Shown here: positions 15,701-41,339 of the stretch, piece after piece
How the letters are laid out: the number at the start of each line of letters is the position of its first letter
How positions within the stretch are numbered: the stretch's first letter is position 1
Assembly (NCBI GenBank): GCA_021432655.1
Contig: MU271498.1
Coordinates: forward strand, 1-52,612
Direction of reading: 5' to 3'
DNA: 52,612 nt
Source of the DNA: Atractiella rhizophila
Lineage: Eukaryota
Made by a program: the position numbers and the translations under genes
The notes under the pieces: model-generated
What the model saw: only the letters and a program-made list of their open reading frames with translations
The model's database searches: none
What the model was told of the DNA's origin: nothing

Positions 15701-15728
15701 CAATCGACAATCGACAATCGACAATCGA
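15701..15728. repeat. Short tandem repeat (CAATCGA)4
   Basis: caatcgacaatcgacaatcgacaatcga read directly. Confidence 0.85.
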
Positions 15729-16063
15729 GAGAACACGAACGTAATATTCCGCTTCGCATTATTTCGAATCAAGCAAACACCTTCTCCCTCCCATGCTCTC
15801 TTTTCCCGAATACCTTTCATGATAAACCTCAATTCTCCCAATCTCCCTTTTGTACATCATCTCAATAAAAACATATCTGTTGTCACGTCAGCCCATGGTT
15901 CAAAACCGAGATTGGTTGAGCTTCAGCAGACCACGAGTTTTGGTGATTAACCAACCAGTAGAGACCATACAGCAGAAGAGTTTGTTCCCCCATTTTGGAG
16001 CAGAGAGGATGGCCTCAACTTAGAAAAATGTCTTCATCATTCGGACAGTGGACTCCTCCCCAT

Positions 16064-17581
16064 TCACGGATCAGGATCCTTATTCAATACCAAGAATGAC
16101 GAGAGGACAGACCTCTTTTCCACGTTTATTTCTGTCTCAATATCGACTCTAACACCTCCATAACTGAGATGTAAATCCCCTTCTCTTCGCCTGCCTACAC
16201 TCTGAAGATGTACTTCTGGTGATTCAAGGACATCAGGCTTGTTAGCACTCCGGAACTTTGGAACTGTGTTAACACGTCCATGTGAACCACTTCGGCTACT
16301 ACTGCCTCCCTCTCGTGAGTTTGGACCCGAAGCAACAGTTCGAAGATGGAGAACAATGCGAGAAGCCATCATCGTTGTGAACGTCAGGGTAAGCGGGCAG
16401 TTCAAAGTCGGATTGAGTTCTTTAGGAATGCTGCGTTGCAGATATCCGTCAGTTCAAGGAGAAAGTTCGGCTAGGATAAGGTCACTACGAACGAGAAATA
16501 AACCACATTGACCAAATTACAAATCGATACGACGATGAAATAGAGGATGCCATCGCGCATGAAGGTCGAGATGAGGTGGGTAGGAGGCGCGTTTCGCCAT
16601 TGAGTAAGAAGTGGTCTTCAAATAAATGAGTAACCAGTCAGCTAGGGGTACGGCGACGGACACGAGCATGAATACTGTCGCTGTAGTGTCGTAAAGGAGA
16701 AGCGGGATCCTGTGAGTATTGTTAGCAATCTGATTCATATTTCGGTGGAGATACGAACCAATAGAGCCATATGTAGCTTGTGGAAATATCAGCTTTATTC
16801 ATGCTAGATGGATGTGAAGACGAATCACTGTTGACGCCCTCGAATAGAAATACATCCTCTCAAGCCGGGCAATCTAACCGAGGCGTCTGCATTTGTCGTC
16901 CGTAACATGATCAACGTGAAGACTTACAGACGCAATGCGTCGTCTTCAGCAAAGGACCAAATTTGAACAGCCGTTCCAACGAATGCAAATGATCCAAAGA
17001 AGTAGGCAATCCATTTACGACGGTTCCACACTACCCAAACTCTTGTACCAAGGAGGGAACTCGCAGTTCACTGCGTTCACATCATGTCAACCTATTTATC
17101 AATACACGGCTTGAGAGGAAGGGACTCACAAAAGAGAATCGTGGTAGCCAGAGGTTCCAGAATATGAACTCGGTTGCACGTTTTCAGGGTGAATTTGAAC
17201 CAGAGAAGACACATCGCCAGGACAAAAGTCAGGAGACCCCAGTAGCTGCACAATTCTGATTAGTCTTTCACTTACGGAGCGAACAAGAGAGGAGTGAGGC
17301 ATACCGATTGAAGAAGTATGAGACTTGAACTGGAGTCCAGCGTTCTGCCTTCCACATCGCCTTGTATTCGGCTGGGAAACTAAGGATAAAGTCCCAAGCA
17401 TAGATCGCAAAACAAGCTGTGCGTAATTTCTGCTAAGCTGGCTGGAGGACTCGGGAATACACAAACCAGTGAGATAGATACGACTGGCTGAAAGAACTCC
17501 TTCTAAATCTGCACGCTGAAGAGCGAGATCGAGCTGCTCTTGGACAGTGGGACTTGGACCCGCTGAAGCGGACGATGACAT
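16064..17581 (-). CDS. DUF6533-type multi-TM membrane protein, paralog 1
   Basis: EQLDLA...RIYLT|ACFAIYAWDFILSFPAEYKAMWK...FFNRY, EFLLGTRVWVVWNRRKW, LLLYDTTAT, TFMRDGILYF, LTLTFTTMMASRIVLHLR; same intron positions as paralogs 2 and 3. Last exon boundary uncertain. Confidence 0.85.
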
Positions 17582-19504: not shown

Positions 19505-20700
19505 TTGACGCTGAACACCCGTCCTTCAACATCATCCATAATTCTGTCCAGCACCCTCCGCACATCGCACTCCGCTGCCACGTTCTGGCCGCTAACTACT
19601 AATGCCGGCAACTCCAGGATTTTGGTTACAGTTGGTCGGAAAGGTGATTTGGTTGAGCCGGCGATGGAACTGTCCGTCAGCGGGACGCCACCTTGGAAGG
19701 TCATTCGCCAACTGAAAGGCGGAGAAGTAGGGATGATGTGTGTTCCTTCACTCCTGCAAACACTTCCCTCCGGACTTCGATTTCTGACGATATGTGGTTG
19801 CAGAACAACTTGTTAGTGCGCCGTCTTCCGTCCATCTTCTCTGGAATGGGATTGAAAAAGGAAGTGACAGTACATAGCACTCTCCTCACTCTCCCCACCG
19901 ACCTACGTCCTGACATACCAACTCAAACTGCTGACAACTGCTGTCTTTTCTTCCTTCTTCTTCTCGCACAGGCTGTCCCTGAGGAAATGGTTCGCTTTCT
20001 CCTCCTAGTCGTCGGCGTGGCTCTCGTCCAACTGGACGACGGTGCTGGAGGGAAGAGTGGATCGAGCAATGAAGGAGAGGACAAAGTACGCGGATTGCTT
20101 GCGATCGGAGCAGCGAGTGTGACGAGCGGCGTGGCCGGGGTGCTGGTTTGAGTGGTTGCTGAAACGCTCTCCTCCGGCTCCGGCAAAAGTGGATGGAACG
20201 AAGGAGAGAGAGGAACTTAGAAGGGGATGAAAAAAGATACGTTGTGGACTAAGAATGTCTCCCTCGCCTTGCCTTCCATCGCCTTTGCGGCCTCACCTCT
20301 CCTCGGCTCACCTACGAGTTTGTCGCTAGAAAATTTTTTTCTAGGCATGCTCCCCCGTCCTACCGTATTAGAAATAACTCTCACTCCTATGATAGCTTAT
20401 ACCCCACTTGTCTGGGGAGTCATTCTACTCCAATCCCTCGGCGGTATCCTCGTCTCCCTCGTCGTGCGCGACTTCTCAAGCGTCACCAAGGGCTTTGTGA
20501 CCTCAGGGTCGATCATATGTATGTTCTCCCTCTCCATGGTTCTTCTTCTATCTACTTTAAGCAGAGTACGCCACTCATTCATGACATGTGCAGTGACCAG
20601 TTCAGGTGGAATGTACCTTTAAGCCCTACGTCCAGGGCTCCGATGGTATTTTGGGGCAATGGCGGTGATCGGAGCGACAGGAGTGTGGAGCTTAGGGTAA
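19505..20700 (+). CDS. Nucleotide-sugar (UDP-galactose, SLC35A/Gms1-like) transporter; 5' structure unclear, possibly degenerate
   Basis: CVPSLL..QNNL, LLLVVGVALVQL, GLLAIGAASVTSGVAGV, LWTKNVSLA, YTPLVWGVILLQSLGGILVSLVV..SSVTKGFVTSGSII match the family pattern; start codon not identified. Confidence 0.72.
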
Positions 20701-21420
20701 AGAAAATTGAAAGCAGGGATACTACTATGGCATGGATGGCCTTGAGTAGACGCGTGTCCCATGGCTGGATCCTTACCATCTTCGCTTTCCCCTTGAGGAA
20801 AGCCGAGTAGTACGCACCACTCCTTCCAGATATGCATCTCAAAGAATGCGTTACTGATGGATAGTTTAGATGAACTGATCTGGCGAATGGTTGCTTCCTG
20901 CGATGGCGTATGAAAACGCTTGTTTTAACTTCTATATTCTAAAAAACTAGAATCTCTCCTTGAATTTATTAGGACTGAGGATCAATCCAGCTGACTATGC
21001 TCTCCATCTTGGAATGCAAAATTCATCAAAGCTGTCGCTCCTCATGATGTTGTTTCATTTGCTGGGGGTGCCCGTGCTCTCCGGTTCCGTTCTCACCTTC
21101 ACCTCAAATAAATATGAGCAAGAAATGCTGTGGTGACACGAGTCCCCATAAATCTGTTCCGAGAATGTTGCGATTATTCTCACCGAAGCGGGTACTGTAG
21201 AGGTAAAACAAAGCTCTCGTCCGAATAAACACGTGTGCAAGAAGGATTTACTTTTCGTTCGTTTCCTGCACCACTGTTGAACGGTGAGCGTTCAGTTCCC
21301 TTTGGTTCAACAGCTACCTTATTCTGAATTCGTCTTCTTCATCGCGGCGCGTATTGTTTATGTGCTAGGCCAAGAGCTGCCGAGAGTTTCAAGCAAGAAG
21401 AGCTTTCAGAACAGTCTACA

Positions 21421-21439
21421 TTCAAACAAGAGTTATAAA
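21421..21439 (+). promoter_or_regulatory. Conserved TTCAAAC-N6-TATAAA core promoter of paralog 2
   Basis: ttcaaacaagagttataaa ending ~60 bp before ATG 21501. Confidence 0.65.
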
Positions 21440-21500
21440 GCGGCCCAGCCTCTTTCCTTCTTAGCGGCTCTCCTCACGAGCTCCTTGGCACACAAGGGCC

Positions 21501-23097
21501 ATGTCATCATCAGATGATCCTACAAATGTTAATGTCGAAGAACAGCTCAATCTCGCTATGCGGCGTGCAGTTTTGGAGGAAGTCCTTTCTACGAGTCGTA
21601 TCTATCTCACAGGTTCGCGCTTTCCTCGCTCCGCAGCGGAACTTGACTAAACTGAGGGCAGCCTGCTTTGCGCTCTATGGCTGGGACTTTATCCTGACGT
21701 TCCCAAACGAATACCGTTCCATGTGGAAGGCGGGGAGGTGGACACCAGTCCGAGTCTCGTTCTTCTTCAATCGGTACGTTTCTCTCTTCGAATTTCACGT
21801 TACCAGAAGGCTCATGTAACAATTTTCGAAGCTACTGGGGTATCTTGACGTTCGTCCTGGCGATGTGCCTGCTCTGGTTCAAGTTCACGCCAAAAACGTG
21901 TGACAAGGTTCACATTCTCGAGCCTGTCGCCACCACCATTCTCTTTTGCGAGTCCACTCCTCGCAATACAATATAAAATGACTGACATAATATCGGTAAA
22001 GTGAACTGCGAGTTCCTCCTTGGTGCCAGAGTCTGGGTATTATGGAACCGTCGTGAATGGGTTGCTTATTTCTTTGCGATATTCGCCATTGGAGGCACCG
22101 CTATTCAAGTGTGGTCGTTTGCTGGGGACAAAACTTTGCCTTTGTAAGCATTCAGGTCACTAGGTCACGGGAAAGAAAATGCAGACGAGTGCTTTAGACT
22201 GCCGGGCTTGAGGGGGTGCATCTCTGTCAGAGGAGACCAAAAGTGATTTGTCTTCACCAATGTGGGAATAACCATGCTGATCCTTCTTACAGCTACATAT
22301 GGCTGTATTGGTTTGTGTCTCCTTCCAACTTAGGCATTACATTGATGAATGGAGGCTTAGGGTTCCGCTTCTCCTCTATGACACAACGGCAACGATATTC
22401 ATGCTCGTGTGCGTCACCTAAACTCCCGTCTGGCTGTCTGCTAAGTCCTCAAAAGTCCACTCATCACTCAGTCGCGTAACGCACCACTTACGCGCCTCCT
22501 CTCGACCTTTATGCGTGATGGAATCCTCTACTTCATCATAGTATCAATCTGCAACGTAGTCAACGTGGTTTACTTCTCGTTCGTAGTTCTTATTTCCAGT
22601 CAGGCTTTCTCTCATTAACCTGCATTTGCAACACAGCATCCCTGCAGAAGTCAATCCAACTTTGAACTCTCCGCTTACCCTCACATTCACACCGATAATG
22701 GCGTCCCGCATTGTACTGCACCTACGATCTGTCGCTTCTAATTCGAACTCGCGGGAGGGAGGTGCGAGCAGCCACAGTGGCTCTAATGGACGCAGTAATA
22801 CGGTTCCAAAATTTCGGTCTCTCAATAAACCTGATGTTCGAAAATCACCAGACTCGCATTCTCAGGGTATAGGGAGGGGGATACGAAGAGAGGGGGATCT
22901 ACATCTCAGTTATGGAGGTGTGAGAGTTGATGTTGAGACAGAAATAAACGTGGAAAAGAGGTCTGTTTGCCGCCCAATTTATATGTTTGATCTAGGATCC
23001 TAATAGGAAAGATAGACTTGAGGCTCGTGAGGATACGGAAGGTCAAGAGAGAGACTATCGTTCGTCAGATGATGCATATGCAATTGAGAAGAAATAA
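21501..23097 (+). CDS. DUF6533-type multi-TM membrane protein, paralog 2 (complete)
   Basis: MSSSDDPTNVNVEEQLNLA...ACFALYGWDFILTFPNEYRSMWK...FMRDGILYF...PLTLTFTPIMASRIVLHLR...VEKR|LEAREDTEGQERDYRSSDDAYAIEKK*. Confidence 0.88.
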
Positions 23098-24536
23098 CGC
23101 CAATGCCCGCTTACGCGGTATTGTCCAAGATCACACCCTGTCTCCGCCATCATTAGATTGGCGCACTACACATGACTTAACTACAAAGCTTAACCAGGAT
23201 GGGTTAATTGGAAGGTCATGTATCTTTTTCCAGTTTCTCGTGCGCGGGACACTTGAAGATATACTATCTAGATTCCTCAGTCGAGGCTGTAAGCATAGCA
23301 TTGTCTAGCAACGGCCGAACCATTTTCTCTTCTGCCTTTCTACGACAGGACTAGAAATCAAAAAGTTATATATATAATAGACAACCGACGGTTCGTGGTT
23401 GGGGAGAGGACGACGCGCACATTCTTCTTTCCTGTTCCTCTCGTTCCTTTCGCGAATCCAATATTAAAGGCAGTATTTCAATATGGCCTATCAACAGCTT
23501 ACTGCAGGCTCTCTCTCGAACCCTGCGAAAATGTACTTCAGCAAGCAACTTTCGAACCTCAGGTTATCAGGTAACCTCCATGTTGAAGGTCTGCTCTCTC
23601 TAATAGCTTGGATCCATGGTTAAAGCTATCTTTAGCTGTCAATGCAATATCTGGAACACACGATCTAAACAAAGGGCATAATTTCCTTCATGATGCAGCC
23701 ACGACACTACAGCGTGTGGCAAGCGGATGAGGTCCTGCAAGTCGTTAAGTTCGCGCTATCTCTCCCGGTCAACACCAACCCATTTTCGAAGGAAAGCAAT
23801 ACCGCATGGACTGGTTTGTCGCTAGACAAACCTTTTCGAGGTATTCTTACCTTTCTCTCTTGTAGGTCCTTGCAGTCGAGGTTGGAAACGCATAGGTTAT
23901 CCAACACTTATGGATACTTAAAGCGAATTACTGTCTAACTCATGACATTCCGGTGCAGCGTATGAAAACGCTTGTCCGATTATTGTATGTTCAGAACCAC
24001 TCTCTAGACGAAACAGAGTTCAATCCTCAGGCTGCGTGCAAGCAATCTAGGGTTTGTCTTCCATCATGAACCCCTTCTAGAGTCGTCTAAAGAGCTGATA
24101 GAGGATTGATTTAGGCATCAGCGTTTAAAACACAGTGCTTTGGGATCGTGATAAGTTTGCTCACAGATTCCGTCCTCCCAGTCGACGAAATATGAGAAAA
24201 TATGCTCTGTGGACAGGAGGTGACGCTGAAGGTCCTGTAATGTCGTTCCGAGAATGTTACGGTTATTCTCCACTGTCAGAAGGTCTACCAACGCAATGCA
24301 GAAGCAAATTTTCTCGCCCGACTATGGTGACAGAGCTATGGAAAGAAATATCCTTCATTCGTTCTCGCAGTTGAAACGTTAACCACCGTTGAGGTCCATC
24401 AAGTCCAATGGGTGGGTCTCCTTCTGACACTTGTATCCAGTGTTTTTCAATTTTTTTTATTTGCAAGGCCAAGGCTTTCTGAGAGCTTCATGGCAAGAAG
24501 AACGTTCAGAACAGAGCAACTTCAAACTTACAGTAA

Positions 24537-24555
24537 TTCAAACGCGACATATAAA
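24537..24555 (+). promoter_or_regulatory. Conserved TTCAAAC-N6-TATAAA core promoter of paralog 3
   Basis: ttcaaacgcgacatataaa upstream of ATG 24646. Confidence 0.65.
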
Positions 24556-24645
24556 AGCAGCAAAGCATCTTTGCCTCTTGGCCAGTCTTAGCTGGAGACT
24601 CCATATTCCTCCCAAATTTCCTGAGTACCTTGGCACTTGGCAGTC

Positions 24646-25703
24646 ATGTCCACCCCCACTGTCGAAGAACAGCTCGATCTCGCTAACCAACGAGCAGCTT
24701 TGGAAGAAGTCCTTTCAGCTAGTCGTGTCTATCTCACTGGCTCGTGCCTTCCTCCATCTCATGTGGGCTTAACCGAATGAGCGAACAGCTTGCTTTGCGA
24801 TCTATGGCTGGGACTTCATCCTCACTTTTCCAGGAGAATACAAGGCGATGTGGAAGGCTGAACGTTGGACGCCAGTCCGCCTCTCGTTCTTCTTCAATCG
24901 GTATTTTACAGCTCTCCAAGTTCGCCCAACAGAGGAAGACTCACCTCAGTATTCTGCAGCTACTGGGGCCTCCTGACTTTTGTTCTGGCGATGTGTCTTC
25001 TCTGGCTTGAATTTACCCCGAAAATGTGCAACAAGTTCCATATTCTCGAGCCTGCTGCCACGACCATTCTCTTTTGTGCGTCCGCCCATCTCAAACCACG
25101 GAGTTAAATAAGTATTGACAATCATGGGTGCAGTGAATTGCGAGTTTCTCCTCGGCACAAGAGTATGGGTAATGTGGAACCGTCGCAAATGGATCGCATA
25201 CTTCTTTGGGATATTTGCCATCGCTGGCACGGCTGTCCAGGTGCTGTCATTCGCTGAGGACGATACCCTGCGTTTGTACGTCTTCAAGGAAAACGAGACA
25301 CTTGTTGACCTGTGCTATAGACTACCTGGCTTGAGGGGTTGCATCTCGATCCGAGGACGCGACCAGTGATTCGTCTTCACGTCTATCTGGTATAAAAACT
25401 GACGTAATGTTTCGCGTAAAGCTACATATGGATTTATTGGTTCGTCGCGTGTTTCCATGATCAGACCGCTGATAATAACGACAGGGTCCCACTTCTGCTT
25501 TACGATACGACGGCGACGATTTTCATGCTCGTGTCAGCTAGATAAATTCCTCCCGACTTGTTCCTAACCTTTAACAGGCCACTCATCTCTCACTGGCGCG
25601 AAGCCCCTCCTACCCGCCTCATCTCAACCTTCTTGCGCGATGGCATCGCCTACTTCATCATCGTATCAATTTGCAATCTGGTTAACGTGGTTTACTTCTC
25701 GTT
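24646..25703 (+). CDS. DUF6533-type membrane protein, paralog 3, 5' part (interrupted in this assembly)
   Basis: MSTPTVEEQLDLA...ACFAIYGWDFILTFPGEYKAMWK...FLRDGIAYFIIVSICNLVNVVYF|gtt; forward similarity stops at 25703 and resumes at 36289. Confidence 0.85.
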
Positions 25704-28011
25704 ACTTGGAGCGACTCTGGAAGGAGGTCGTAATAGCACAACTACCATAACCTCTAGGTGAGACCTCACTTTAGCTGGTCTCAACGGACTCGACTAAAAC
25801 AGCGGACCTCTCGACTCTTCATCCCGAAGTAGAACAGTGCTTCTCTTAGACCCTCGCAGGGAGCCTCCTCAGGTACAGGCCGCCTACTTCTACTTACTAA
25901 CGGTCCAAAGGATACCACGTCTCGTGACGACGAGCAGGTTCAGCGCTGCACATGCTTTCGTCACTCTAAGAAAAGATCCTGTCGGTGTACAAGACAGAGT
26001 CGCGACTCCCGCATCAAGGTCACTTTACTCATGTACGTTTTCTCGCTTGGTGTGTCTTTGCCGCATCTCTACTAAGCGTCGTAGCATAAGGATTAAGTTG
26101 GTCAAGGTGTAAGGGTAGTCGCAGTAGAAAGTTCTGTAACTGGATCTACGGATCGGAACTAGGGCGGACTTTCGCATGCTTCTCTTCCTCCTGCTAACGT
26201 CTTTTAACAAGAAGGTTCGATACCTCACGACTAGCTTACGTCTATTTCGCGTCGCGGCATTGTTCTAAGCTTTCTGAGGGGTAAGTAGTGGTCTCCACTG
26301 CTCGTTCTCTCCTCCTAAGCGTCTCAGTGTCCTCTTTTAGATAGGACGGGGCGAGCTATCTAACCTGCTTACGTCGACAAGCTCTTAACAGTCGCACTTT
26401 GAAGAGCTTTCTCAGTTCTCTGACCTTCTCTTGTGACTTCGTGCCCGTAACGCGGACTTGTCATTTAGAAGTCCAAGTACGCGTCGCCGATGCTAGCTGG
26501 CACGGGACGATAAGTGTCTAGTCGTCTTCGTTCCGGCACCTGACGACTTACATCTTCATCTGCTAGCAAGCGGCATGAGAACTATTATCTCGGTATATTG
26601 AGAGCCCTGCCCGTACACCTGGCTCGTTAAGTTAACACGCTGCCGCGCATTACTATTGATGTATCTTCAATTGCTGACAGGACGTATGCCTCTTTCCAGA
26701 TCTTAAGTCGCTCTGTTATCTTGGCACGAGTTATACATCCTTTGCATAACCCTGTCTTATTGGACAGCTTTTACTCCACAGTAGTCTCACTGTCTTGCTT
26801 CTCTTCTGTAGGAAACGTTGTCGCGTACCAGCTGGTCAGGAGTGTGAAGAGGAAGCACGGTCATCTCTCGTAGCGGTGTTGGTTCGAGGAGCGGTACGTC
26901 GAGCAGTGTTGAGCGCCGAAGCTAGCGTCGGATAGACGGACGAAATAGGAGGGGAAGTGACGGGAAGAGAGATCGTAGTAGCAGGTCAACATCCTTGCTT
27001 TCGCCTTGCTGTCACTTCCCTGGTCAAAGCCTCTTCTCACATCAACAATTGTCAGACTCAACCCTACGATCCTACTACATCCACTCTACCTCTCGCTCCT
27101 TTCACGTTAGTAATGACACGGCGACAATAAGTTAAAAGATCGGAACCTCTATCTCCTCGTCGCGTGCCTATACAAACGTTAATCCCGGTCTTTAGCGTAT
27201 CGTGTGCTTTCTCTCTTTCCTTTGTATGTGCCGAATATAGGTTGGCACGCGTGGTATGCACAGTTTAAGCTGGGCTTTGTCTTGCTTATACAGCCATGTC
27301 CAGGTTACCGTTTACAGTATAGAACAAATGTTGGTACAGGCGTCTGTGTTCCCTTTCTAAATGTGGCGTCCCTATCGTGAATTTTGAATACGTCGCATAC
27401 CTGTCACACGCTCGGCAAGGCCAGTGCGGTTGGCGCAAAACGTTGCTTACTCGTTGTCTACTATCATAACCCGTTATGGACCCATTCTAGCTAGTCTAAA
27501 CTCACTTTTGACGTAGTAATAAAGAAGAAAGGTGGTCGTGGGAGTAGTCTGCGTGCTATTAGAGAGAGATCTGGAAGCCGTAGGAGGCGTCGGAGCTCAG
27601 ATAGAAAGGGACAATCCCCCTGGAAAGAGTGTTCCACCATCTGTCTGGAGAAAAGGTGCAAACAGAGGTGAAGTTGTAATTGGTAGTGTTGACGTAATGA
27701 TTGGACGTTGGGGGGGAGATAAGCGGAAGGATGTCACACTTACACACGTAGACCACCAAGCGCTTTTAGACCGGCCAATTTCGAGGATTTGAAACCTTGA
27801 CACAATTAAGCAGGTCTTCTCGGTGACGCCGACGACGGAGGAAGAGCACTCAAACTTGGTCCCCGTTGTCTGGCTTCTACCTCGTGCTAAGCTCTTCAGT
27901 ACTAGCAGCACTTACAGTCTCATTCGCCTGTCAAGTCTCAACCCAACTAAAGACAACCCTACGACATCATAGTGCAACCAAATCCTCTTAGAAACCGACT
28001 TCCACCAATGC
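25704..28011. repeat. Mirror (reversed, non-complemented) block, left part; probable assembly artefact
   Basis: Read backwards without complementing: 27708->26801 matches 36289-37213 nearly exactly; 28011->27709 is the missing 303 bp of paralog 3; 26800->25704 is a diverged version of ~37214-38300. Confidence 0.93.
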
Positions 28012-28269
28012 NNNNNNNNNNNNNNNNNNNNNNNNNNNNNNNNNNNNNNNNNNNNNNNNNNNNNNNNNNNNNNNNNNNNNNNNNNNNNNNNNNNNNNNNN
28101 NNNNNNNNNNNNNNNNNNNNNNNNNNNNNNNNNNNNNNNNNNNNNNNNNNNNNNNNNNNNNNNNNNNNNNNNNNNNNNNNNNNNNNNNNNNNNNNNNNNN
28201 NNNNNNNNNNNNNNNNNNNNNNNNNNNNNNNNNNNNNNNNNNNNNNNNNNNNNNNNNNNNNNNNNNNNN
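28012..28269. other. Assembly gap (258 N)
   Basis: Run of N. Confidence 0.99.
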
Positions 28270-31200
28270 ACGCTTCACAGTCGAACGCTTCACGGCTTCA
28301 ATGTTTCATTTTATTACGTCGAGAATGAAGCCACACACAGAGCTGAAGATTCATAATATGCTCCGAATGAATTTTTCAGCCTGTTCATAGATTTGATCAA
28401 AGCATGAACATCATACAGCTCATACACATCACTTCGAAGCATAACGTTGAAATAGACTCGGAGGTTCTCACCACGTCCTGCTGTCCATTGCTCTCCTCAG
28501 CGTACAGTACTTGATCTCACACATCGGATGGCTTAGCACTCCTTTCATGGTGGCTTTCATGGTTGCCCTAATACGAAATTGAGAACTCCGAGAGGGAACT
28601 GAAGTGAGCTCTTCCCAAACAGAAACAAACACTTGTTTACCATAGCCACCACGTAGCAGCGAGCGCTCCGCAGAGCTTTCCGATACTGCATAGGAGGGGA
28701 CATCTAACTTATTCTTCATCAGTCTACAAAATTTCTCAGCATTTCATAATGGATCAGCATTCCACCTCCTCCTTCCTCCGTCGCTCATCCCGTCCACCAG
28801 CCGCGGAATATCCCCAGGCATATCCCTTCAAACGTGCCCTAGCCTCAGCCTCAAAGAAGAAACGGGCAGGCAAGAGGGCCCCCGCGGACCTCCCGCCGTC
28901 CTCCTCCTTCTACGTCTCCTCCCTCCCCGGCCTCCCTGCCTCCTCTACACTCTCCATGTTCGCGGGCCACCTCTCCTCCGCTGCAACTTCCCCAACTTCT
29001 GCTTCAACAACGCCTGGAGACCCAAACCTTTTCTTTCTTTTGATGAAGAATAGACATATCGCTGATCGTCCCAGACTTATCATTTGGTTTAATGGTATGT
29101 GTTCTCTTCCAACTCTTTCAAAGCCAGGATTAGGGTAGAGGTGTTAATGTGTGCTTGTTTGGGCAACGAAAGGTGGCCCCGGATGCTCGTCCTTCGATGG
29201 TGCTATGATGGAGATTGGACCGTGGCGATTAAAAGGAGGGGAGCTGCGGGAAGTGGAAGGTGGATGGAACGAGTATGCAAACGTATTATTCGGTCCGTCC
29301 TCTCCTCGTTGAATGGTCTTATGGTGGACTTATCATGAAATGGATTGGACGGAAGTCGACCAACCTGCTGGCACGGGTTACTCAACCGTCAATACGGATG
29401 GATATGTTCATGAGTTGGGAGAGGTCGGAAGTCAGATGGTATCTTTCTTGAGGAGGTTCTACGACGTCTTCCCAGAGTATGAATACATGGAGGTGCGGTT
29501 CTCCCTCTTTACCAATAAAGTAAACATCTAACGCGTTACCTGTTGCTTTGTGATGATTGGTAGACATATTTAGCTGGAGAGAGCTACGCAGGCCAATACA
29601 TACCCTACATCGCCTCCTCCATCCTCTCCACCACTCTCGTCAATCCACCACTAAAAGGTCTCCTAATAGGCAACGGCTGGATCGATCCCGTCTCGCGTTC
29701 GTCTTCTCCCTCTTTCTTTGCTTCTCTGCACTCCACGATGTGAGGAAAGCCAACAAACGGCGGCTAGATAGAATACCCTGCATATCTAGACATGGCACTC
29801 GAGTCCTCACTCATCAAACGTGGAACGCAGGCGTTCAAGGACGTGGAAGGAGCGACGAAGAGGTGTAATGCGACGTTGGAGGCGATGGAACGTTCCGAAG
29901 GCGGGGTGAAGGTGCATGTTGGAGCTTGTGAGCGCATACTCAGTCTCATCACCGACAAAACGCTCCTAACGTACGTTTCCCTCCTACCCTTTCCCCTTTG
30001 CCCTCCGCACAATCGAAATCGAAATCACATTGAACGTTTGTTGACTGTTTTTGCCGCACAGGGTGAATGGCCAACAGGTCTGCGTGAACAACTACGACGT
30101 CCGTCTAACCGATTCATATCCCTCCTGCGGCATGAATTGGCCTCCAGACCTGACAGAGGTCACTCCTTACCTCTCTCGTGAAGACGTCAAGCAGGCGTTC
30201 CACGCGCAAAAGAAGCAAGGAAACTGGCATGAATGTGCTGGAGATGTGGGAGCGAACTTTTGGGCGTCGGAGAGCAAACCCGCAGTGGAACTTTTGCCGG
30301 CATTGTTGGAGAAGGTCGAGGTGTTGCTGTTTGCTGGAGACCAGGGTCTGTTTAGACCTTAAGTTCGTTTGATGAGACTGAGGGCAGATGTAGATTTGAT
30401 TTGTAATCATCGAGGGATAGAAGCTTTGATCGATCGTTTAACCTGGCAAGGAGTGAAGGGCTGGGGCGTACGCCTCCCTGTTCATCTTCACGACAGATAT
30501 AACCTGGGATTCTAGGACGCAGTAGCAGAAGATTGGTTCGTCTCCTCCGTCAAATCAGGCACCTGGACCCGCTCCCGAAATCTAACCTACGCCCTCGTCC
30601 ACGGTGCCTCCCACATGGTTCCATACGACGTTCCCCTCGTTGCACAAGACATGGTCCTCCGTTTCATGGGCGTCGACCTCCTCGCCGCCTCCGGCGAAGG
30701 CGGACGTGTACCCTCGCGCGTCGGAGACGAAGAGGTGGAGGCTGTCGTCGGACAGACGAGCTCGAATGTCGGCACGACGAAGGAGGAGGATGATGGCGGG
30801 ATGGGAGTCAAGGAGGAGGAGTATGCGAATGTCGGGTCGGCTGCTTTTATCATTTTGTTGTTGGGGGCTGGTGTCGCCATCTTTTGGTTCTTTCGCCGGA
30901 AGAGTCGCGGTGGCAGCGGAAGTGGTGGGAGGAAGGGGAAGATTGCCGTTGGTGGTGGAGGGAGGGAAGAGAGGGATAGGATGAGGAGCGCAGAAGAGGG
31001 GAGGGAACATGAACTTCAGATGTTGATGAGTGAGGGAGAGGTGTTTGCTGTCGGTGACGAGGAGGAGGATGGGGAAAGGGAGGATAAACGGAGGGAAGGG
31101 AAGGATTAATTGTCTGCTTTAGATTCATCATCGCATTAATTTGTTTTGGTATCATCTGCCTGCCTGGACTTGTAATGGATGGACTTTACTCTTTCGTTAA

Positions 31201-31498
31201 GTCACGTTGGTGTGTCGCGTCACAACCTACAGACGTGGCCATTACATGCATCCAATCATGCTGCACTCGGGAGCCGACTCAGGTGCACTGCTGGTACTCC
31301 CTTTACGTAAACTTGCACGGCACCAAACTTGCTGCACCGCCTTCGGACTAGAGCTCCGAAGTAGAAGCAGTTGCAACATAACAAAACGAAAGGCGGGTCG
31401 GGACATGAGAGTTCGATATGTCTAATCAAGCGGGACTCCAGAGCTTGGCACCTATAAAAAGGATTATCAGACCTAACCTTCACGGAGGTTGGGAAGAT
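28270..31498 (+). repeat. Direct near-identical duplicate of 38465-41746 (KEX1 locus), flanked by gaps
   Basis: Both begin acgcttcacagtcgaacg and end ggaggttgggaagat; they differ by scattered SNPs, one largely replaced intron and an 18-nt indel in the 3' flank. Confidence 0.95.
28749..31109 (+). CDS. KEX1: Pheromone-processing serine carboxypeptidase KEX1 (S10), copy A
   Basis: [76 protein letters not shown] helix and acidic tail; start codon uncertain. Confidence 0.9.
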
Positions 31499-31523
31499 NN
31501 NNNNNNNNNNNNNNNNNNNNNNN
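31499..31523. other. Assembly gap (25 N)
   Basis: Run of exactly 25 N. Confidence 0.99.
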
Positions 31524-34500
31524 TGGGGGGGAGATAAGCGGAAGGATGTCACACTTACACACGTAGACCACCAAGCGCTTTTAGACCGGCCAATTTCGAG
31601 GATTTGAAACCTTGACACAATTAAGCAGGTCTTCTCGGTGACGCCGACGACGGAGGAAGAGCACTCAAACTTGGTCCCCGTTGTCTGGCTTCTACCTCGT
31701 GCTAAGCTCTTCAGTACTAGCAGCACTTACAGTCTCATTCGCCTGTCAAGTCTCAACCCAACTAAAGACAACCCTACGACATCATAGTGCAACCAAATCC
31801 TCTTAGAAACCGACTTCCACCAATGCTTGCTCTTCATTTGGTGCAATTGGTCTAACGTTTAACTATGCTACTACTTCATCCGCTACGGTAGCGCGTTCTT
31901 CCAACTCTACTCCGCCCATCCTCCCCGAAGCGCGGTCACTCTCTACTCACCGGACAATTTCCAATCCTTGTTCAGCCCTCCTTAAATAGATCGACTGTGC
32001 TCGTACTTTTAGCAGCGGCAGCATAGCATTTCGTCTTCACCCTGGGACAGCAATAATAGTCGCCAGACTAGTACCTTTGTGCGCTGCTTGGTTATTTAGG
32101 TATACATCGAAATGCGCTTTGTAATGCAGTCAAAAATATGGTCTATCTGCACTTCTGCTTAGTGACCAGCGCAGGAGCCTAGCTCTACGTTGGGGAGTTC
32201 GGTCCATCAGATATCGTGTCCAGTTGTTCACAGAGCAAAAGGAACTTCTGCATGTTTGCGTCCCATAGCAGGAGTCGCTTACTGTCGTGGACCTGTCGGC
32301 ACGGTCGCTACCGTTTATAGGGTTTCTTCATACGCTAGGTAAACGCTGCCAAGGTGTAATGGGTATGAGAACACGGCTCCTCTTTGAGCGTTAAGTGACG
32401 TGGGTACTAACAGTTATGAATAAATTGAGGCACCAAACTCTACCCGCCTGCGTGTTTTCTCTTACCAGCACCGTCGTCCGAGCTCTTATACCTTGAACAA
32501 CGTGTAAAAGCCCCATTTAAGTTCGGTCTCTTCTGTGTAGCGGTCTTGTTTTCAGTCCTCCGGGGTCATCGACGTCTTATGACTCCACTCAGAAGGAGAC
32601 AACCCGCTTGAACCTCTCGACATTTTATGGCTAACTTCTTCTTGCTCTCCGCCTGACCGCAGGTTGCAAGTCGGAAGGTGTAGCGGAACATAAGAGGACC
32701 TTTTCACTCCTACTTCAGGGTCGGTATCTAGCGTTTCGTTCGACAAGCGAGTAAGCCAATTCGGGTGTACTCTACCTCCTTCCGTGCTCGGTCACTCTAT
32801 CTGTGCTGATCGACTTTCCTGAAGAAGGTTTCGACGAGCAACCAATCGCTCTAGCTCGACAAGAAGCTGTCACCCCCACCTGTACTGACGGTTCACGGTT
32901 CCATGAGTCCTTTAAACCCTCCTTATACCTCAGAGGTCGATTCTGACCGGTTCTCCGTTTCTACGAAACGACGAAAATATACAGCGCAAACTTAATGACA
33001 TTCAAACTTCAACGAGACAAGACTTGCAAGAAGAACGGTACTTCGAGAGTCTTTCGGAACCGGAACGTTTATTTTTTTTAACTTTTTGTGACCTATGTTC
33101 ACAGTCTTCCTCTGGGTGGGTAACCTGAACTACCTGGAGTTGCCACCAATTGCAAAGTTGACGCTCTTGCTTACTTCCTATAAAGATAGGTATCGAGACA
33201 GTGGTATCAGCCCGCTCTTTAAACGAAGACGTAACGCAACCATCTGGAAGACTGTCACCTCTTATTGGCATTGTAAGAGCCTTGCTGTAATGTCCTGGAA
33301 GTCGCAGTGGAGGACAGGTGTCTCGTATAAAAGAGTATAAAGCAGCTGACCCTCCTGCCTTAGACACTCGTTTGAATAGTGCTAGGGTTTCGTGACACAA
33401 AATTTGCGACTACGGATTTAGTTAGGAGATAGTCGAGAAATCTGCTGAGATCTTCCCCAAGTACTACCTTCTGTTTGGGATCTAACGAACGTGCGTCGGA
33501 CTCCTAACTTGAGACAAAGCAGATCTCTCACCAAGACTTGTATGTTATTAGCCTGTTCGCAAAAGTATGCGACGTGGCCTTACAGTACTCAATCTGTCAT
33601 TAAGCGAAATTCATAGGTATTCACAACCTATTGGATACGCAAAGGTTGGAGCTGACGTTCCTGGATGTTCTCTCTTTCCATTCTTATGGAGCTTTTCCAA
33701 ACAGATCGCTGTTTGGTCAGGTACGCCATAACGAAAGGAAGCTTTTACCCAACCACAACTGGCCCTCTCTATCGCGCTTGAATTGCTGAACGTCCTGGAG
33801 TAGGCGAACGGTGTGCGACATCACAGCACCGACGTAGTACTTCCTTTAATACGGGAAACAAATCTAGCGCACAAGGTCTATAACGTAACTGTCGATTTCT
33901 ATCGAAATTGGTACCTAGGTTCGATAATCTCTCTCGTCTGGAAGTTGTACCTCTAATGGACTATTGGACTCCAAGCTTTCAACGAACGACTTCATGTAAA
34001 AGCGTCCCAAGCTCTCTCTCGGACGTCATTCGACAACTATCCGGTATAACTTTATGACGGAAATTATAACCTAAGCGCTTTCCTTGCTCTCCTTGTCCTT
34101 TCTTCTTACACGCGCAGCAGGAGAGGGGTTGGTGCTTGGCAGCCAACAGATAATATATATATTGAAAAACTAAAGATCAGGACAGCATCTTTCCGTCTTC
34201 TCTTTTACCAAGCCGGCAACGATCTGTTACGATACGAATGTCGGAGCTGACTCCTTAGATCTATCATATAGAAGTTCACAGGGCGCGTGCTCTTTGACCT
34301 TTTTCTATGTACTGGAAGGTTAATTGGGTAGGGCCAATTCGAAACATCAATTCAGTACACATCACGCGGTTAGATTACTACCGCCTCTGTCCCACACTAG
34401 GACCTGTTATGGCGCATTCGCCCGTAACCGCAATAAAGAAGAGTTAACGTATACGTAGTAGACTGCTTGCTATCAGAGAGAGAACTGGAAGGCATAGGAG

Positions 34501-36288
34501 TGCTCGGAGTTCAGATAGAAAGGATAATCCTAGGATCTAGTTTGTATATTTAACCCGCCGTTTGTCTGGAGAAAAGGTGCAAATAAAGACAGAGTTGTAG
34601 TTGAGAGTGTGGAGGTATTGACTCTACATCTAGGGGGAGAGAAGCATAGGGGGAGGGATATGGTACTCTTACGCTCAGACCACTAAAAGCTTGTAGTCCA
34701 AATAACTCTCTGGCTTTAAAACCTTGGCATAATGACGCAGGTAATCTCGGTGACACCGACGAGCGTGGAGGGAGGGCGCTCAAGCTTAATCTTCGCTGTC
34801 TAGCATCCACGTCATGTTACGCCCTGCGGTAATAGCCACACTTACACTCCCATTCGCCTCTCAAGTTTCAACCTAACTGAAGACGTCCCTACGACACAAC
34901 GTTTACGTCCAATTACTCTCTTTCGGACTGACCTTTATTCTTGATGCTTGCTCTTCATTTGGTGCAACTGATGCAACGTCTAACTATGATACTACTTCAT
35001 CTCCTAAGGTAGTGCGTATTTCCAGCTCTCCTCCGCGCATTCACCACGCAATGCGCTGACTCACTACTCACCTGAAAACTCCTGAATCGTCTGTCGGTCT
35101 GCCCTCAAATCCACTGCGTGTGCTCGTACTTATAGCAACGGCAACACAGTATCTCCTCTTCGCCTTGGGATTCGGAGGTAAGTAGTTACATTACGGATTC
35201 AACCTTCCTCTGTGTTTGGTTATGTCGGTATACATCGACATTCTTCCTAGTCGTACCAATAAGGGTGTAACCACTTCTGTTTAGTGAAAACCAGAGGAGA
35301 CTGTCTCTACGTGGGGGAGTTCGGGCCGTCAGATTTCGTGAGCAGACGTAAAAGAAAGGGCACTGGATCACTGGACTTACGAATGTTTCCGTTTCAAAAC
35401 AGGGGTCGTTTGCTGGTGTGAACTTATCGCCACGGAGGTTACCGCTTATAGCGTTTCTTTATTCGTTGGGTAAGTGCTGCCAAGGTATTATGGGTCTGAG
35501 ACCGTGGTTCCTCCTTGAGCGTCAAGTGAAATGGCTATAATACAGTCAGTAAAAATATAACATAACGCTCCTCACCTGAGCGTTTTCTCTTACCACCACC
35601 GCTGTCCGAGCTCTTACACTTGGAACAGTGTGCAAAAACCGCACTTGAACTTGGTCTCGTCCGTGTAGCGGTCCTGCTTGCAGTTCTATGGGGTCATCGA
35701 AGCTTTTAACAATGTACTCGGAAGACCATTGCACTTTAAGCTTCTCTCTTTTGCATGGCTAACTTCTTCTTGCTCTGAGCCTGACCACAGGTGGAGGGGC
35801 GGAAGGTGTACCTTGCCATAAGCAAACCCTTGCAGTCCTATTTCAGGGTCGGTATCTCGCGTTTCGTCCGACGGGAGTCAAATCAGTTCAAGGCGACGCC
35901 TCGCTCCTTTCGCGCTTGGACACTCTATCTATGCTGAGCATCTTTCCTGAAGGAGGTTTTGACGTGCGGCGTATCGCTCTAACTCGACAAGAAGCTGTAA
36001 TTGTAAACATCCTAGTAGACTACTACTGTACCGGGAACACACGGTTCCTCGAGCACTCCTCTCGGCGATTCTTCCTTTCTCCGACCCGGCGAAATATTGA
36101 GAACAAACTTACATCTGACAAGACTTTCGAGAAGAACGAACTTTGAGAGCCGTCGAGAACCGGATCGTGTATTTGTTATGCGCGGGCGCTACTTCTTCTG
36201 CTTAAGTCTTATTCCATCGACAACTTGGTTTCCCTTGACTTGCGAGTGGCAAGTTGTCACCACGTCCTTTGCTTGCTTTTCATTTAGG
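31524..36288. repeat. Mirror (reversed, non-complemented) block, right part; probable assembly artefact
   Basis: 36288->31827 read backwards matches 21244-25703 almost base for base (coordinate sum 57532 to 57530); 31524-31826 is an exact repeat of 27709-28011. Confidence 0.95.
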
Positions 36289-36479
36289 TGCAGGTTAGTA
36301 ATGCAGTTGTGATGGTTAATGTTGAAGTGGAGACAAACGTGGAAAAGAGGTCTGTCTACCCCCTTGTGAGAAAGGTCCCCCTAACAGGGAAAGATAGACT
36401 CGAGGCTGCGGAGGATGCCGAAGGTCTAGAGAGAGATTATCGTGCGTCTGATGAGGGTGCTGGTGGAAAGAAGAAATAA
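36289..36479 (+). CDS. DUF6533-type membrane protein, paralog 3, 3' part
   Basis: QVSNAVVMVNVEVETNVEKR|intron|LEAAEDAEGLERDYRASDEGAGGKKK*, homologous to the tail of paralog 2. Confidence 0.85.
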
Positions 36480-36949
36480 TGATGCAGTTTTCACTCAAAT
36501 CTGATCGATCTTACCCAGGTATTGCCCAATACTATCATCTGTTGCTCATTCGTTGCAAAACCCGGTTGGCGTGACCGGAACGGCTCGCACACTGTCCATA
36601 CGCTGCATAAGTTTTAAGTGCTATCCCTGCGGTGTAAATCTTTCCCTTGTGTCTGCGGACATGGTTGTAAACAAGATATGACATTTGACATTGGACCTGT
36701 ACCGACATATTCGTTCTGTTTCGGGTCGAATTTGACACGTATGGTGCGCACGGTTGGATATAAGCCGTGTATGTTTCCTTTCTCTCTTTCGTGTGCTATG
36801 CGATTTCTGGCCCTAATTGCAAACATATCCGTGCGCTGCTCCTCTATCTCCAAGGCTAGAAAATTGAATAACAGCGGCACAGTAATGATTGCACTTTCCT
36901 CGCTCTCCATCTCACCTACATCATCCTAGCATCCCAACTCAGACTGTTA

Positions 36950-38250
36950 ACAACTACACTCTTCTCCGAAACTGGTCCCCTCACTGTCCGTTCCGCTTTC
37001 GTTCCTACAACTGGACGATGATGCTAGAGAGAAGGGCAGTGAAGGGGAGGATAAAGCAGGCAGATAGGCTGCGATCGAAGCCGCGAGTTGTGACGAGCTG
37101 CATGGCGAGGAGCTTAGTTGTTGCGATGCTCTCCCACTGGCACGAAGGAGAAAAGTAGATGGTGTACGGAAGAGGGAAAATCGACCATGCGCTGTTGCAA
37201 AGGATGTCTTCTCGCCTTGCATCGCCTGTGCGCACACCTCTTCTCCCCCAATGACTATTCAGTCCCTAGACATCTTTTTACAAGGCATGCTTCTCTTTCT
37301 CTCATGTATATGTAAGACCATTGACGTATGCTGAGGACAGGTGTTACCTTATATGTGGTGAGCGATTCTCATCGTCGGCTCCCTCGTAGTGCCCGACTTC
37401 CCGAGAGACGCCCGAGAGTTATCAAAGGCCTGTGAGCAATAATTCGATGCAAATTCGATGGTTTTCTGTACGAAATTCACGTCCTTGGTCTTGTCTCTAT
37501 TTATAGTAGAGTACGGCACTTCTATAAGCAAGCACCCAACATTTACTTTATACACCACGCCCTCGCTTCAGATGGTCTGTGAGAGTAGTGCGCGATTCGA
37601 TCGAGCAGACGCGGACATATCTTGATGATGTTCGAGCGGGAATAACAGCTGGATCATTCCTCTGCATGCCCGCCTTCGCCTTGGGTCTTTCGAGATCTTT
37701 CACGCTCATCAATTCGCGCAACAACACTGCATTCGTCCAATCTATCAGCGAGGCGGGTAGATTTTCTGCTGTAACACGGTCCATCCTCCTCTTTTGCGCT
37801 CAAGCGGGAATGAAGGAGGAGGCATCTAAGTAACATCTGTCTCCCTAACGCAACGCCTTCAATAGAATTTGAAGCACCCTTCGGGGAAAATCTTTATCAT
37901 CCTCCTCCATGTGTGCGTATTTCAGCTCTGCTTTCATTGTCCATATCTGACGATGACGCTGATGGGATAACTAGTTATTAGATAGTCCTGAAACCTCGGT
38001 TTCTGTTGGTTCGCTCTTTTCCATGGACAAAAGACAAATGCCTAAGCGTGAGACGACAGGAGAGGAGAGCCGGGAAGTCCAATGCCTCGTACACGACGCG
38101 ACTTGCACGACCAGAAGTGCTCTGCAACAGAGGAAAGGCAAGCATTCTGTAAGTCCTTTGCATCGCTCCGAATCACTCAGAGACCAGACCTCTACACGTT
38201 TAGCCTAATAGATTTTCAGCCTTCAGACTGTAGATCGTACTAGTACAGAG
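36950..38250. other. Unresolved coding-like region (orphan gene or pseudogene)
   Basis: Several 60-90 aa ORFs on both strands; differences from the mirrored diverged version often fall every third base, suggesting coding constraint. Strand and product not determined. Confidence 0.35.
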
Positions 38251-38943
38251 TACCATTAAACCGGCTTCTAAATAACAGCAAAACTCACTGCGGCGACAAA
38301 TAAGACACTTGAATGCCAAATCATGCGACGAAGCCGAACCACACACTGTAGATGCAAAGAAGACGAGAACGCATGGTTCACGCAATGGATGGGATCTTGT
38401 TGGAGGGCTCTAATAAATTAAAAACTGAATGTCAGTTGGTATCACCGTTGTTTGAAAAACTTTGACGCTTCACAGTCGAACGCTTCACGGCTTCAATATT
38501 TCATTTTATTACGTCGAGCATGAAGCAGCACACAGAGCTGAAGATTCATAGTATGCTCCGAATGAATTTTTCAGCCTATTCATAGATTTGATCAAAGCAT
38601 GAACATCATACAGCTCATACACATCACTTCGAAGCATAACGTTGAAATAGACTCGGAGGTTCTCACCACGTCCTGCTGTCCATTGCTCTCCTCAGCGTAC
38701 AGTACTTGATCTCACACATCGGATGGCTTAGCACTCCTTTCATGGTGGCTTTCATGGTTGCCCTAATACGAAATTGAGAACTCCGAGAGGGAACTGAAGT
38801 GAGCTCTTCCCAAACAGAAACAAACACTTGTTTACCATAGCCACCACGTAGCAGCGAGCGCTCGGCAGAGCTTTCCGGTACTGCATAGGAGGGGACATCT
38901 AACTTATTCTTCATCAGTCTACAAAATTTCTCAGCATTTCATA

Positions 38944-41339
38944 ATGGATCAGCATTCCACCTCCTCCTTCCTCCGTCGCTCATCCCGTCCACCAGCCGCG
39001 GAATATCCCCAGGCATATCCCTTCAAACGTGCCCTAGCCTCAGCCTCAAAGAAGAAACGGGCAGGCAAGAGGGCCCCCGCGGACCTCCCGCCGTCCTCCT
39101 CCTTCTACGTCTCCTCCCTCCCCGGCCTCCCTGCCTCCTCTACACTCTCCATGTTCGCAGGCCACCTCTCCTCCGCCGCAACTTCCCCAACTTCTGCTTC
39201 AACAACGCCTGGAGACCCAAACCTTTTCTTTCTTTTGATGAAGAATAGACATATCGCTGATCGTCCCAGACTTATCATTTGGTTTAATGGTATGTGTTCT
39301 CTTCCAACTCTTTCAAAGCCAGGATTAGGGTAGAGGTGTTAATGTGTGCTTGTTTGGGCAACGAAAGGTGGCCCCGGATGCTCGTCCTTCGATGGTGCTA
39401 TGATGGAGATTGGACCGTGGCGATTAAAAGGAGGGGAGCTGCGGGAAGTGGAAGGTGGATGGAACGAGTATGCAAATGTATTATTCGGTTCGTCCTCTCC
39501 TCATCTCCCTTTCTCTTCAGCTAAGGAATGCGTTGGTGTTGGTGTTGGTGTTGGCGGAATTGGAATGGATTGTAGTCGACCAACCGGCTGGCACGGGTTA
39601 CTCGACCGTTAATACGGATGGATATGTTCACGAGTTGGGAGAGGTCGGAAGTCAGATGGTGTCTTTCTTGAGGAGGTTCTACGACGTCTTCCCAGAGTAC
39701 GAATACATGGAGGTGCGGTTCTCCCTCCTTACCAATAAAGTAAACATCTCACACGTTACCTGTTGCTTCGTGATGGTCGGTAGACATATTTAGCTGGAGA
39801 GAGCTACGCCGGCCAATACATACCCTACATCGCCTCCTCCATCCTCTCCACCACTCTCGTCAATCCACCACTCAAAGGTCTCCTAATAGGCAATGGCTGG
39901 ATCGATCCCATCTCGCGTTCGTCTTCTCCCTCTTTCTTTGCTTCTCTGCACTCCACGATGTGAGGAAAGCCAACAAACGGCGGCTAGATAGAATACCCTG
40001 CATATCTAGACATGGCACTCGAGTCCTCACTCATCAAACGTGGAACGCAGGCGTTCAAGGACGTGGAAGGAGCGACGAAGAGGTGTAATGCGACGTTGGA
40101 GGCGATGGAACGTTCCGAAGGCGGGGTGAAGGTGCATGTTGGAGCTTGTGAGCGCATACTCAGTCTCATCACCGACAAAACGCTCCTAACGTACGTTTCC
40201 CTCCTACCCTTTCCCCTTTGCCCTCCGCACAATCGAAATCGAAATCACATTGAACGTTTGTTGACTGTTTTGGCCGCACAGGGTGAATGGCCAACAGGTC
40301 TGCGTGAACAACTACGACGTCCGTCTAACCGATTCATATCCCTCCTGCGGCATGAATTGGCCTCCAGACCTGACAGAGGTCACTCCTTACCTCTCTCGTG
40401 AAGACGTCAAGCAGGCGTTCCACGCGCAAAAGAAGCAAGGAAACTGGCATGAGTGTGCTGGAGATGTGGGAGCGAACTTTTGGGCGTCTGAGAGCAAACC
40501 CGCAGTGGAACTTTTGCCGGCTTTGCTGGAGAAGGTCGAGGTGTTGCTGTTCGCCGGAGACCAGGGTCTGTTTAGTCATTAAGTTTGTTTGGTGCGAGAC
40601 TGAGAGCAGATGCGGGGTGATAGATTTGATCTGTAATCATCGAGGGATAGAAGCTTTGATCGATCGTTTAACCTGGCAAGGAGTCAAAGGCTGGGGCGTA
40701 CGCCTCCCTCTTCTTCTTCACGACAGATCTAACCTGGGATTCTAGGACGCAGTAGCAGAAGATTGGTTCGTCTCCTCCGTCAAATCAGGCACCTGGACCC
40801 GCTCCCGAAATCTAACCTACGCCCTCGTCCACGGCGCCTCCCACATGGTTCCATACGACGTTCCCCTCGTTGCACAAGACATGGTCCTCCGTTTCATGGG
40901 CGTCGACCTCCTCGCCGCCTCCGGCGAAGGCGGACGTGTACCCTCGCGCGTCGGAGACGAAGAGGTGGAGGCTGTCGTCGGACAGACGAGCTCGAATGTT
41001 GGCACGACGAAGGAAGAGGATGAGGGCGGGATGGGAGTGAAGGAGGAGGAGTATGCGAATGTCGGGTCGGCTGCTTTTATCATTTTGTTGTTGGGGGCTG
41101 GTGTCGCCATCTTTTGGTTCTTTCGCCGGAAGAGTCGCGGTGGCAGCGGAAGTGGTGGGAGGAAGGGGAAGATTGCCGTTGGTGGTGGAGGGAGGGAAGA
41201 GAGGGATAGGATGAGGAGCGCAGAAGAGGGGAGGGAACATGAACTTCAGATGTTGATGAGTGAGGGAGAGGTGTTTGCTGTCGGTGACGAGGAGGAGGAT
41301 GGGGAAAGGGAGGATAAACGGAGGGAAGGGAAGGATTAA
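38944..41339 (+). CDS. KEX1: Pheromone-processing serine carboxypeptidase KEX1 (S10), copy B (in contiguous sequence)
   Basis: Same motifs as copy A (GESYAG, DLICN, HMVPYD, TM, acidic tail). Confidence 0.92.

Follow-up and report, generated by a model that had tools for sequence, protein, structure and literature searches.

Uncollapsed alleles (haplotigs) cause false duplications in assemblies of heterozygous or dikaryotic genomes, and single database entries, for example of ribosomal RNA (rRNA) or the internal transcribed spacer (ITS), have been deposited reversed but non-complemented. Natural mirror repeats are tens of bases in length and have abutting arms. Those recognized as H-DNA or triplex motifs are polypurine-polypyrimidine tracts (PMC9171763). 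The description of PBJelly (English et al. 2012) defines a gap as 25 or more N, describes extension of the flanks when a gap cannot be closed, and attributes "overfilled" gaps to scaffolding errors (PMC3504050). Here, we describe a locus that resembles each of these cases in part. It lies in contig MU271498.1 of the Atractiella rhizophila assembly GCA_021432655.1, of which positions 1 to 52,612 were analyzed (the window), and comprises the block 25704-36288, in which 7073 bases are written backwards and uncomplemented. This mirrored text is almost certainly a software artefact and not a real feature of the DNA of this organism.

The window was reversed, left uncomplemented, and run against itself by the basic local alignment search tool (BLAST). 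This search returned 24 high-scoring segment pairs forming 12 reciprocal pairs, and in each of the 12 exactly one member falls in 25704-28011 or 31524-36288. Positions 36288 down to 31827 (termed A′) match 21244-25703 (A) at 99.776% identity over 4463 columns (E = 0), and positions 27708 down to 26801 match 36289-37213 at 96.865% over 925 columns. An earlier note on this DNA had claimed both relations, the first of them as near exact, and both are borne out; in a global alignment of A′ with A, 4453 of the 4463 columns match, the remainder being six substitutions and four single-base indels in short runs. The 31-letter example given in that note is exact, positions 31827-31857 being the letter reversal of 25673-25703. 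Ordinary self-BLAST, which compares direct and reverse-complement sequences, listed nine pairs and no match between 31827-36288 and 21244-25703, so that standard BLAST indeed misses the mirror, as the note had warned. Because the reversed text aligns while ordinary self-BLAST shows no relation between the two stretches, 31827-36288 is a true mirror of 21244-25703 and not a chance resemblance.

The mirrored text consists of two pieces, 2308 bases at 25704-28011 and 4765 bases at 31524-36288. The amount of about 7 kb proposed previously is thus correct, but the mirrored block is not continuous, for its middle (28270-31498) is an ordinary direct copy. Poor translation in all six frames, also pointed out in the note, is true of the mirrored text but does not discriminate: the genuine copy at 21244-25703 is likewise without any open reading frame (ORF) of at least 150 amino acids because its genes carry many introns.

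The limits of the mirrored text are 25704, 28011, 31524, and 36288. Only two runs of N are present in the window, at 28012-28269 (258 N) and 31499-31523 (25 N), and the junctions 25703/25704 and 36288/36289, where the mirrored pieces are seamless with the contigs, are free of N. Each piece passes into a contig without interruption at one end and adjoins an N run at the other. The stretches next to the gaps, 27709-28011 and 31524-31826, are the same 303 bases (100% identity in self-BLAST), the reversal of which is termed X′. Between the gaps lies C′ (28270-31498), a direct copy of 38465-41746 (C) at 96.07% over 3283 columns in ordinary self-BLAST. From left to right, the features are as follows:

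21244-25703, forward strand: A, the genuine, right-way-round counterpart of A′; the contig ends at 25703.
25704-26900, no strand assigned: distal part of B′, mirrored; read backwards, a diverged homologue of about 37100-38310.
26901-27708, no strand assigned: proximal part of B′, mirrored; read backwards, 36289 to about 37090; zero depth of run contigs.
27709-28011, no strand assigned: copy 1 of X′, mirrored; adjoins the N run and is 100% identical to copy 2.
28012-28269: scaffold gap of 258 N.
28270-31498, forward strand: C′, a small, normally oriented contig that is a 96% copy of C.
31499-31523: scaffold gap of 25 N.
31524-31826, no strand assigned: copy 2 of X′, mirrored; adjoins the N run.
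31827-36288, no strand assigned: A′, mirrored; read backwards, 21244-25703; zero depth of run contigs at 31881-36073.
36289-38464, forward strand: B, genuine; the 3′ end of a DUF6533-family gene, then mostly non-coding; the contig starts at 36289.
38465-41746, forward strand: C, the genuine serine carboxypeptidase (S10) region and counterpart of C′.

Independent sequence data were sought with positions 31827-41826 as the query, of which 45% is mirrored and 55% genuine. Three public runs were found. Two of them (X1 and X2) represent one sample, S1, of one organism (organism A), and the third (X3) belongs to organism B. All three were used as Logan contigs, which derive from other individuals or a relative and from at most two samples; they were aligned to 20500-38464, and contig depth was not taken as copy number. 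The runs share 0.41 (X1), 0.40 (X2), and 0.22 (X3) of the words of the query, values that are compatible with runs without mirrored words but are not proof of it. The earlier note had expected no cover inside the mirror, and depth is indeed zero in bins 25891-27687 and 31881-36073 in all three runs. All other bins are covered in X1 and X2, as are all but 27688-28286 in X3, and A is covered by contigs of all three.

The same contigs reveal what the mirrored pieces replace. In X1 and X2, one contig each diverges directly after 25703 and runs on for 236 loose letters, the first 30 of which equal the start of un-reversed X′ (30/30). Contigs of all three runs begin to match precisely at 36289, preceded by 97 loose letters, of which the last 30 agree with the end of un-reversed X′ (29/30). 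Thus, the predicted junction of 25703 with 36289 through about 303 bases is seen at both of its ends. Contigs that reach 31498, the end of C′, proceed as 41747 onward (29/30 letters), and one X1 and one X2 contig lead from 38100-38464 straight into C-like sequence. X3 behaves like an RNA-like run because it is spliced throughout, with GT..AG in 12 of the 14 listed skips. One of its spliced contigs leaves at 25700 and resumes at position 50 of un-reversed X′; the implied 52-base intron starts with GT and ends with AG only if X′ is un-reversed. The case rests on the loose ends, which fall precisely at the mirror limits and whose content is un-reversed.

Gene continuity points in the same direction. 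The window contains a cluster of three paralogous genes, one of them with a DUF6533 domain, that are about 72-74% alike in DNA and are located at 16107-17551 (reverse strand), 21533-23097 (forward strand), and 24655-25703 plus 36289-36479 (forward strand; 36297-36479 in self-BLAST). A holds one DUF6533-family gene (about 21533-23097) and the 5′ part of another (from about 24655), with a DUF6533 domain (PF20151, E 9.2e-14) at 21439-21816, and B holds the 3′ end of the interrupted gene, to about 36479. The block interrupts the third paralogue exactly, and this gene is continuous only with X′ un-reversed; its missing middle, which matches 22582-22907 of the second paralogue, corresponds to the mirrored 27518-27966. 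Stop-to-stop ORFs of the second paralogue were compared by tblastn with the window as written and with a construct of the end of A, un-reversed X′, and the start of B. The 138-amino-acid exon ORF at 22587-23000 has no tblastn match in the window as written, and matches the construct over 112 amino acids at 66% (E 5.7e-35), crossing the X′/B join. The other six ORFs match both versions because they correspond to genuine A or B. A DUF6533-family gene is therefore wrongly split between 25703 and 36289 in the record.

The direction in which the text was written was also assessed from its composition. We defined a direction score as the log ratio of the frequency of a k-mer to that of its letter reversal (k = 5) and trained the model on both strands of 1-16000 and 41800 to the end, with the tested windows held out. 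Among 52 one-kb windows scored, the six wholly in mirrored text range from -40.6 to -96.7, the three straddling a limit give 2.0, 2.3, and 17.8, and the remaining 43 range from +12.2 to +138.5. By piece, A′ (31827-36288) scores -51 per kb and C′ +75 per kb, the latter like genuine DNA. The diverged part of B′ (25704-26900), at -121 per kb, is the most negative stretch, and it therefore represents backward-written, genome-like sequence and not noise. No reversed-looking text was identified by this score elsewhere in the window. The lowest positive genuine window, 50001-51000 (+12.2, others being +25 to +138), probably reflects composition and not reversal.

Un-reversed, B′ matches 36289 to about 37090 at 98-100 positions per 100 columns in the first eight bins and then falls to 40-79 per 100 columns over about 37100-38300. 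This diverged alignment includes 866 matches and 211 substitutions, with conserved islands between divergent stretches, so that 25704 to about 26900 is the mirror of a diverged version that is absent right-way-round from the window. Un-reversed B′ ends about 150 bases before the position matching the start of C. Read noise was considered as the cause of the 65-80% identity in 25704-26900 and rejected in view of the long exact islands and the 211 substitutions. A direct repeat of about 100 bases with 74% identity is also present at 20029-20135 and 37008-37106, and its mirror image occurs at 26878-26990.

The letter of A′ is found in S1 at no fewer than six of the 10 differences between A and A′ (22865, 23196, 23575, 23660, 24343, and a one-base deletion at 24309). 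Between C′ and C there are 72 substitutions and 55 gap columns, and 93 of these 127 differing columns are confined to three 200-base spots. At 24 listed places, the run letters equal C at 16 and are unlike both C and C′ at eight, and for this reason S1 carries a third version. The S1 individual is itself polymorphic, with two versions of 20500-38464. X1 and X2 carry different letters at shared positions (20622, 22679, and 23169 among them), and two X2 contigs disagree at 23384.

Taken together, the redundant copy differs from its counterpart in the way of natural polymorphism, with A′ letters occurring in S1, clustered differences between C′ and C, and islands in B′; the added text thus appears to be natural allelic sequence and neither read noise nor a copy of the neighbors. 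The earlier note had taken the mirror for a copy of the flanking loci. This holds near-exactly for A′, but the allelic differences and the strongly diverged 1.2 kb indicate that the mirrored text came from independent data of a second allele or copy.

We consider it likely that two separate extensions, with C′, B′, and A′ as a second allele, produced the recorded sequence. A scaffolder would have joined contig 1 (to 25703), the 3.2-kb C′ contig, and contig 3 (from 36289), with C′ being the second allele (haplotig) of 38465-41746, which itself lies inside contig 3. A gap closer would then have extended contig 1 rightward by X′ and B′ (2308 bases) and contig 3 leftward by A′ and X′ (4765 bases), and both added strings would have been written in reverse letter order, uncomplemented. 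Neither gap would have been closed, leaving the 258 N and the 25 N. Because C′ would be the counterpart of sequence inside contig 3, the second gap would never have been real, and a leftward extension into an unreal gap would re-read A, fail to close, and leave the 25-N remnant.

Un-reversed in place, the pieces read A-X′-B′-gap-C′-gap-A′-X′-B-C, a coherent arrangement with a redundant second copy of the locus. Un-reversal in place restores both joins seen in the run contigs, the 52-base intron, and the exon, and it explains why each X′ adjoins a gap. The distances are similar as well, with 2308 bases plus 258 N, or 2566 bases, from the end of A to C′ and 303 plus 2176, or 2479 bases, in the genuine copy. 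The real locus is A-X′-B-C, and the second copy is redundant. The earlier note had suggested a gap-spanning read or consensus written reversed without complementing. The reversal artefact stands, but two end extensions fit better than one read because the pieces are split by 258 N, a 3.2-kb direct copy, and 25 N, and each has its own X′. The mirror relation and its exact limits are observed directly, as are the lack of mirrored text and the un-reversed join in independent samples and the recovery of an intron and an exon. We infer that the pieces are contig-end extensions, that C′, B′, and A′ are the other allele and not a real duplicate, and likewise the part played by a gap-closing program.

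Several points weigh against this explanation. A leftward extension of 4.8 kb is long. A literature search found no program that writes extensions reversed, we know of none ourselves, and the bug is one that we infer. Of the differences between A and A′, the other four (23128 and three one-base insertions) do not appear in the listed rows. The run contigs on C′ are nearer to C and no run shows C′ itself, so that C′ is only probably an allele and not a true second copy. S1 also differs from the window in the genuine flanks. Since the runs are contigs of other individuals and not the assembly's own reads, zero cover alone proves nothing. Finally, 30 letters per loose end were seen, and the middle of X′ was not directly seen in DNA contigs.

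The same reversal artefact might instead have affected a real tandem duplication of about 10 kb, with A-X′-B′-C′ followed by A′-X′-B-C and with the scaffold order right. Un-reversal in place does give a perfectly colinear two-unit array, in which the gap before C′ fits (2566 versus 2479 bases), and the strong divergence of B′ over 1.2 kb and that between C′ and C (72 substitutions plus clustered indels) are large for alleles when A and A′ differ at only 10 of 4463 columns. We nevertheless regard such a duplication as unlikely, because the S1 contigs at the end of C′ continue as 41747 onward and not as A′, contigs run from B (38100-38464) into C-like text, and no duplication junction occurs in the three runs, which are not from the source strain and whose contig depth does not equal copy number. 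Moreover, since S1 itself is polymorphic, two alleles are to be expected in the species. A 25-N remnant after a 4.8-kb extension is also the outcome of an unreal (negative) gap (PMC3504050). These observations do no more than weaken the case for a duplication, the runs not being from the assembled strain. If it were real, it would be a recent 10-kb tandem copy with intergenic sequence about 70% and genes 96-99.8% alike.

A single spanning insert of A′, X′, and B′, pasted whole and reversed, with the N-C′-N segment and the second X′ entering later, seems quite improbable. Reversed A′, X′, and B′ do form a single colinear string, and deleting 27709-31523 leaves exactly this string between both contigs. 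However, two extra events would be required: a contig flanked by gaps would have to enter precisely at X′, and X′ would have to be duplicated. The two extensions that we favor need neither, and they also explain the position of X′ at the gaps and the distance of 2308 bases plus 258 N.

A real mirror copy in the chromosomes of the sequenced strain, produced by an unknown process, has a negligible probability. The record itself and nothing else speaks for it, and it would imply a product beyond any known templated polymerase; to our knowledge, no templated polymerase gives same-strand reversed copies. Contig ends and N runs mark the limits of the mirrored text, and at these limits two DNA runs (both from one other sample) and the RNA-like run of a relative part from the record and continue un-reversed. 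In addition, the k-mer statistics are backward, and the mirrored text disrupts a gene and a GT..AG intron, both of which un-reversal recovers.

Three further candidates were rejected. Reversal of the whole block 25704-36288 would mirror C′, which contains a normal S10 gene with GT..AG introns, and would place A′ directly after A, a join found in no run. An inverted repeat or transposon relic is ruled out, as ordinary self-BLAST lists no direct or reverse-complement match between 31827-36288 and 21244-25703. A natural mirror repeat of the H-DNA type is ruled out by the mixed, gene-bearing sequence of the mirrored region (GC 0.46-0.52, GC and AT skews near 0) and by its long, separated arms.

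With regard to the surrounding genes, the window is eukaryotic and intron-rich, and Pfam domains in ORF fragments include ribosomal protein S2, mitochondrial carrier, nucleotide-sugar transporter, and short-chain dehydrogenase. The literature listed for DUF6533 deals with fungi, in most cases Polyporales or other Agaricomycetes, which tentatively points to a fungus, probably a basidiomycete. Serine carboxypeptidase S10 (PF00450) was identified in four exon ORFs of C between 39343 and 41336. C′ encodes an S10 gene with about seven short introns, over which X3 has spliced contigs with GT..AG joints, and this second carboxypeptidase copy is probably spurious. GT..AG introns of 45-91 bases are seen in X3 contigs at 29093-30516 (C′), 22408-22637, 25075-25321, and 36347-36396, and their positions in the S10 and DUF6533-family genes could serve for correct gene models. 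Rfam and ARAGORN found nothing inside the block 25704-36288. Outside it, an uninterrupted ORF of 843 amino acids at 8868-11399 (reverse strand) belongs to no Pfam family at E up to 0.01 and is unusual for this window, in which short exons make up the other genes. An 85-base transfer RNA (tRNA) gene is located at 49375-49459 (reverse strand; Rfam RF00005, 53.4 bits); ARAGORN reports it as "tRNA-???" with the anticodon unassigned, and an intron or a long variable arm may be present.

The value of these results lies in assembly quality control, their biological interest being low. BLAST, dot plots, and repeat finders do not detect letter-reversed text, and because it escapes such standard tools it survives in the public record. 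The damage to annotation is concrete: a DUF6533-family gene is split, a false duplication, with a second serine carboxypeptidase gene in it, is hidden, and 7073 bases that are meaningless as written are offered to gene finders. If a pipeline step reversed its extensions, other gap edges and assemblies made by the same method may share the fault. The direction score finds reversed text without needing a right-way-round copy and could be used to screen whole assemblies.

A literature search turned up no account of reversed multi-kb segments within assemblies, which does not show that none exists; among the matches listed, those for "reversed but not complemented" were synthetic control sequences and unrelated uses only, and those for mirror repeats were natural short mirror repeats only. 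Like a natural mirror repeat, the block shows same-strand symmetry, its two arms being letter reversals of each other. Unlike the polypurine-polypyrimidine tracts (PMC9171763), it is of mixed, gene-bearing sequence, and its arms are 4.46 kb long and 6.1 kb apart. Reversed rRNA and ITS entries result from the same string-handling error, a reversal without complementing; those are whole short records, whereas here an internal multi-kb part of a scaffold is affected and is seen only via a reversed search.

The agreement with PBJelly extends to new sequence at contig ends beside an N run, with the gap shortened and not closed, and to the 25-N remnant, which equals the stated minimum gap (PMC3504050). 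As in overfilled gaps, the added text repeats sequence beyond the gap, and the gap itself would be a scaffolding error (PMC3504050). In contrast, the strings here are in reverse letter order, a reversal that the paper does not describe (PMC3504050), and they are high-quality, allelic sequence and not a consensus with 15% error. We do not claim that PBJelly was the program used here. As in haplotig false duplication, a short contig that is 96% like a neighboring stretch lies between gaps in a polymorphic species; unlike such duplications, which are direct copies visible to BLAST, the redundant copy here is concealed over two thirds of its length by the reversal of letters. The locus thus combines a string-handling error with two known assembly faults: an allele left uncollapsed and an overfilled gap.

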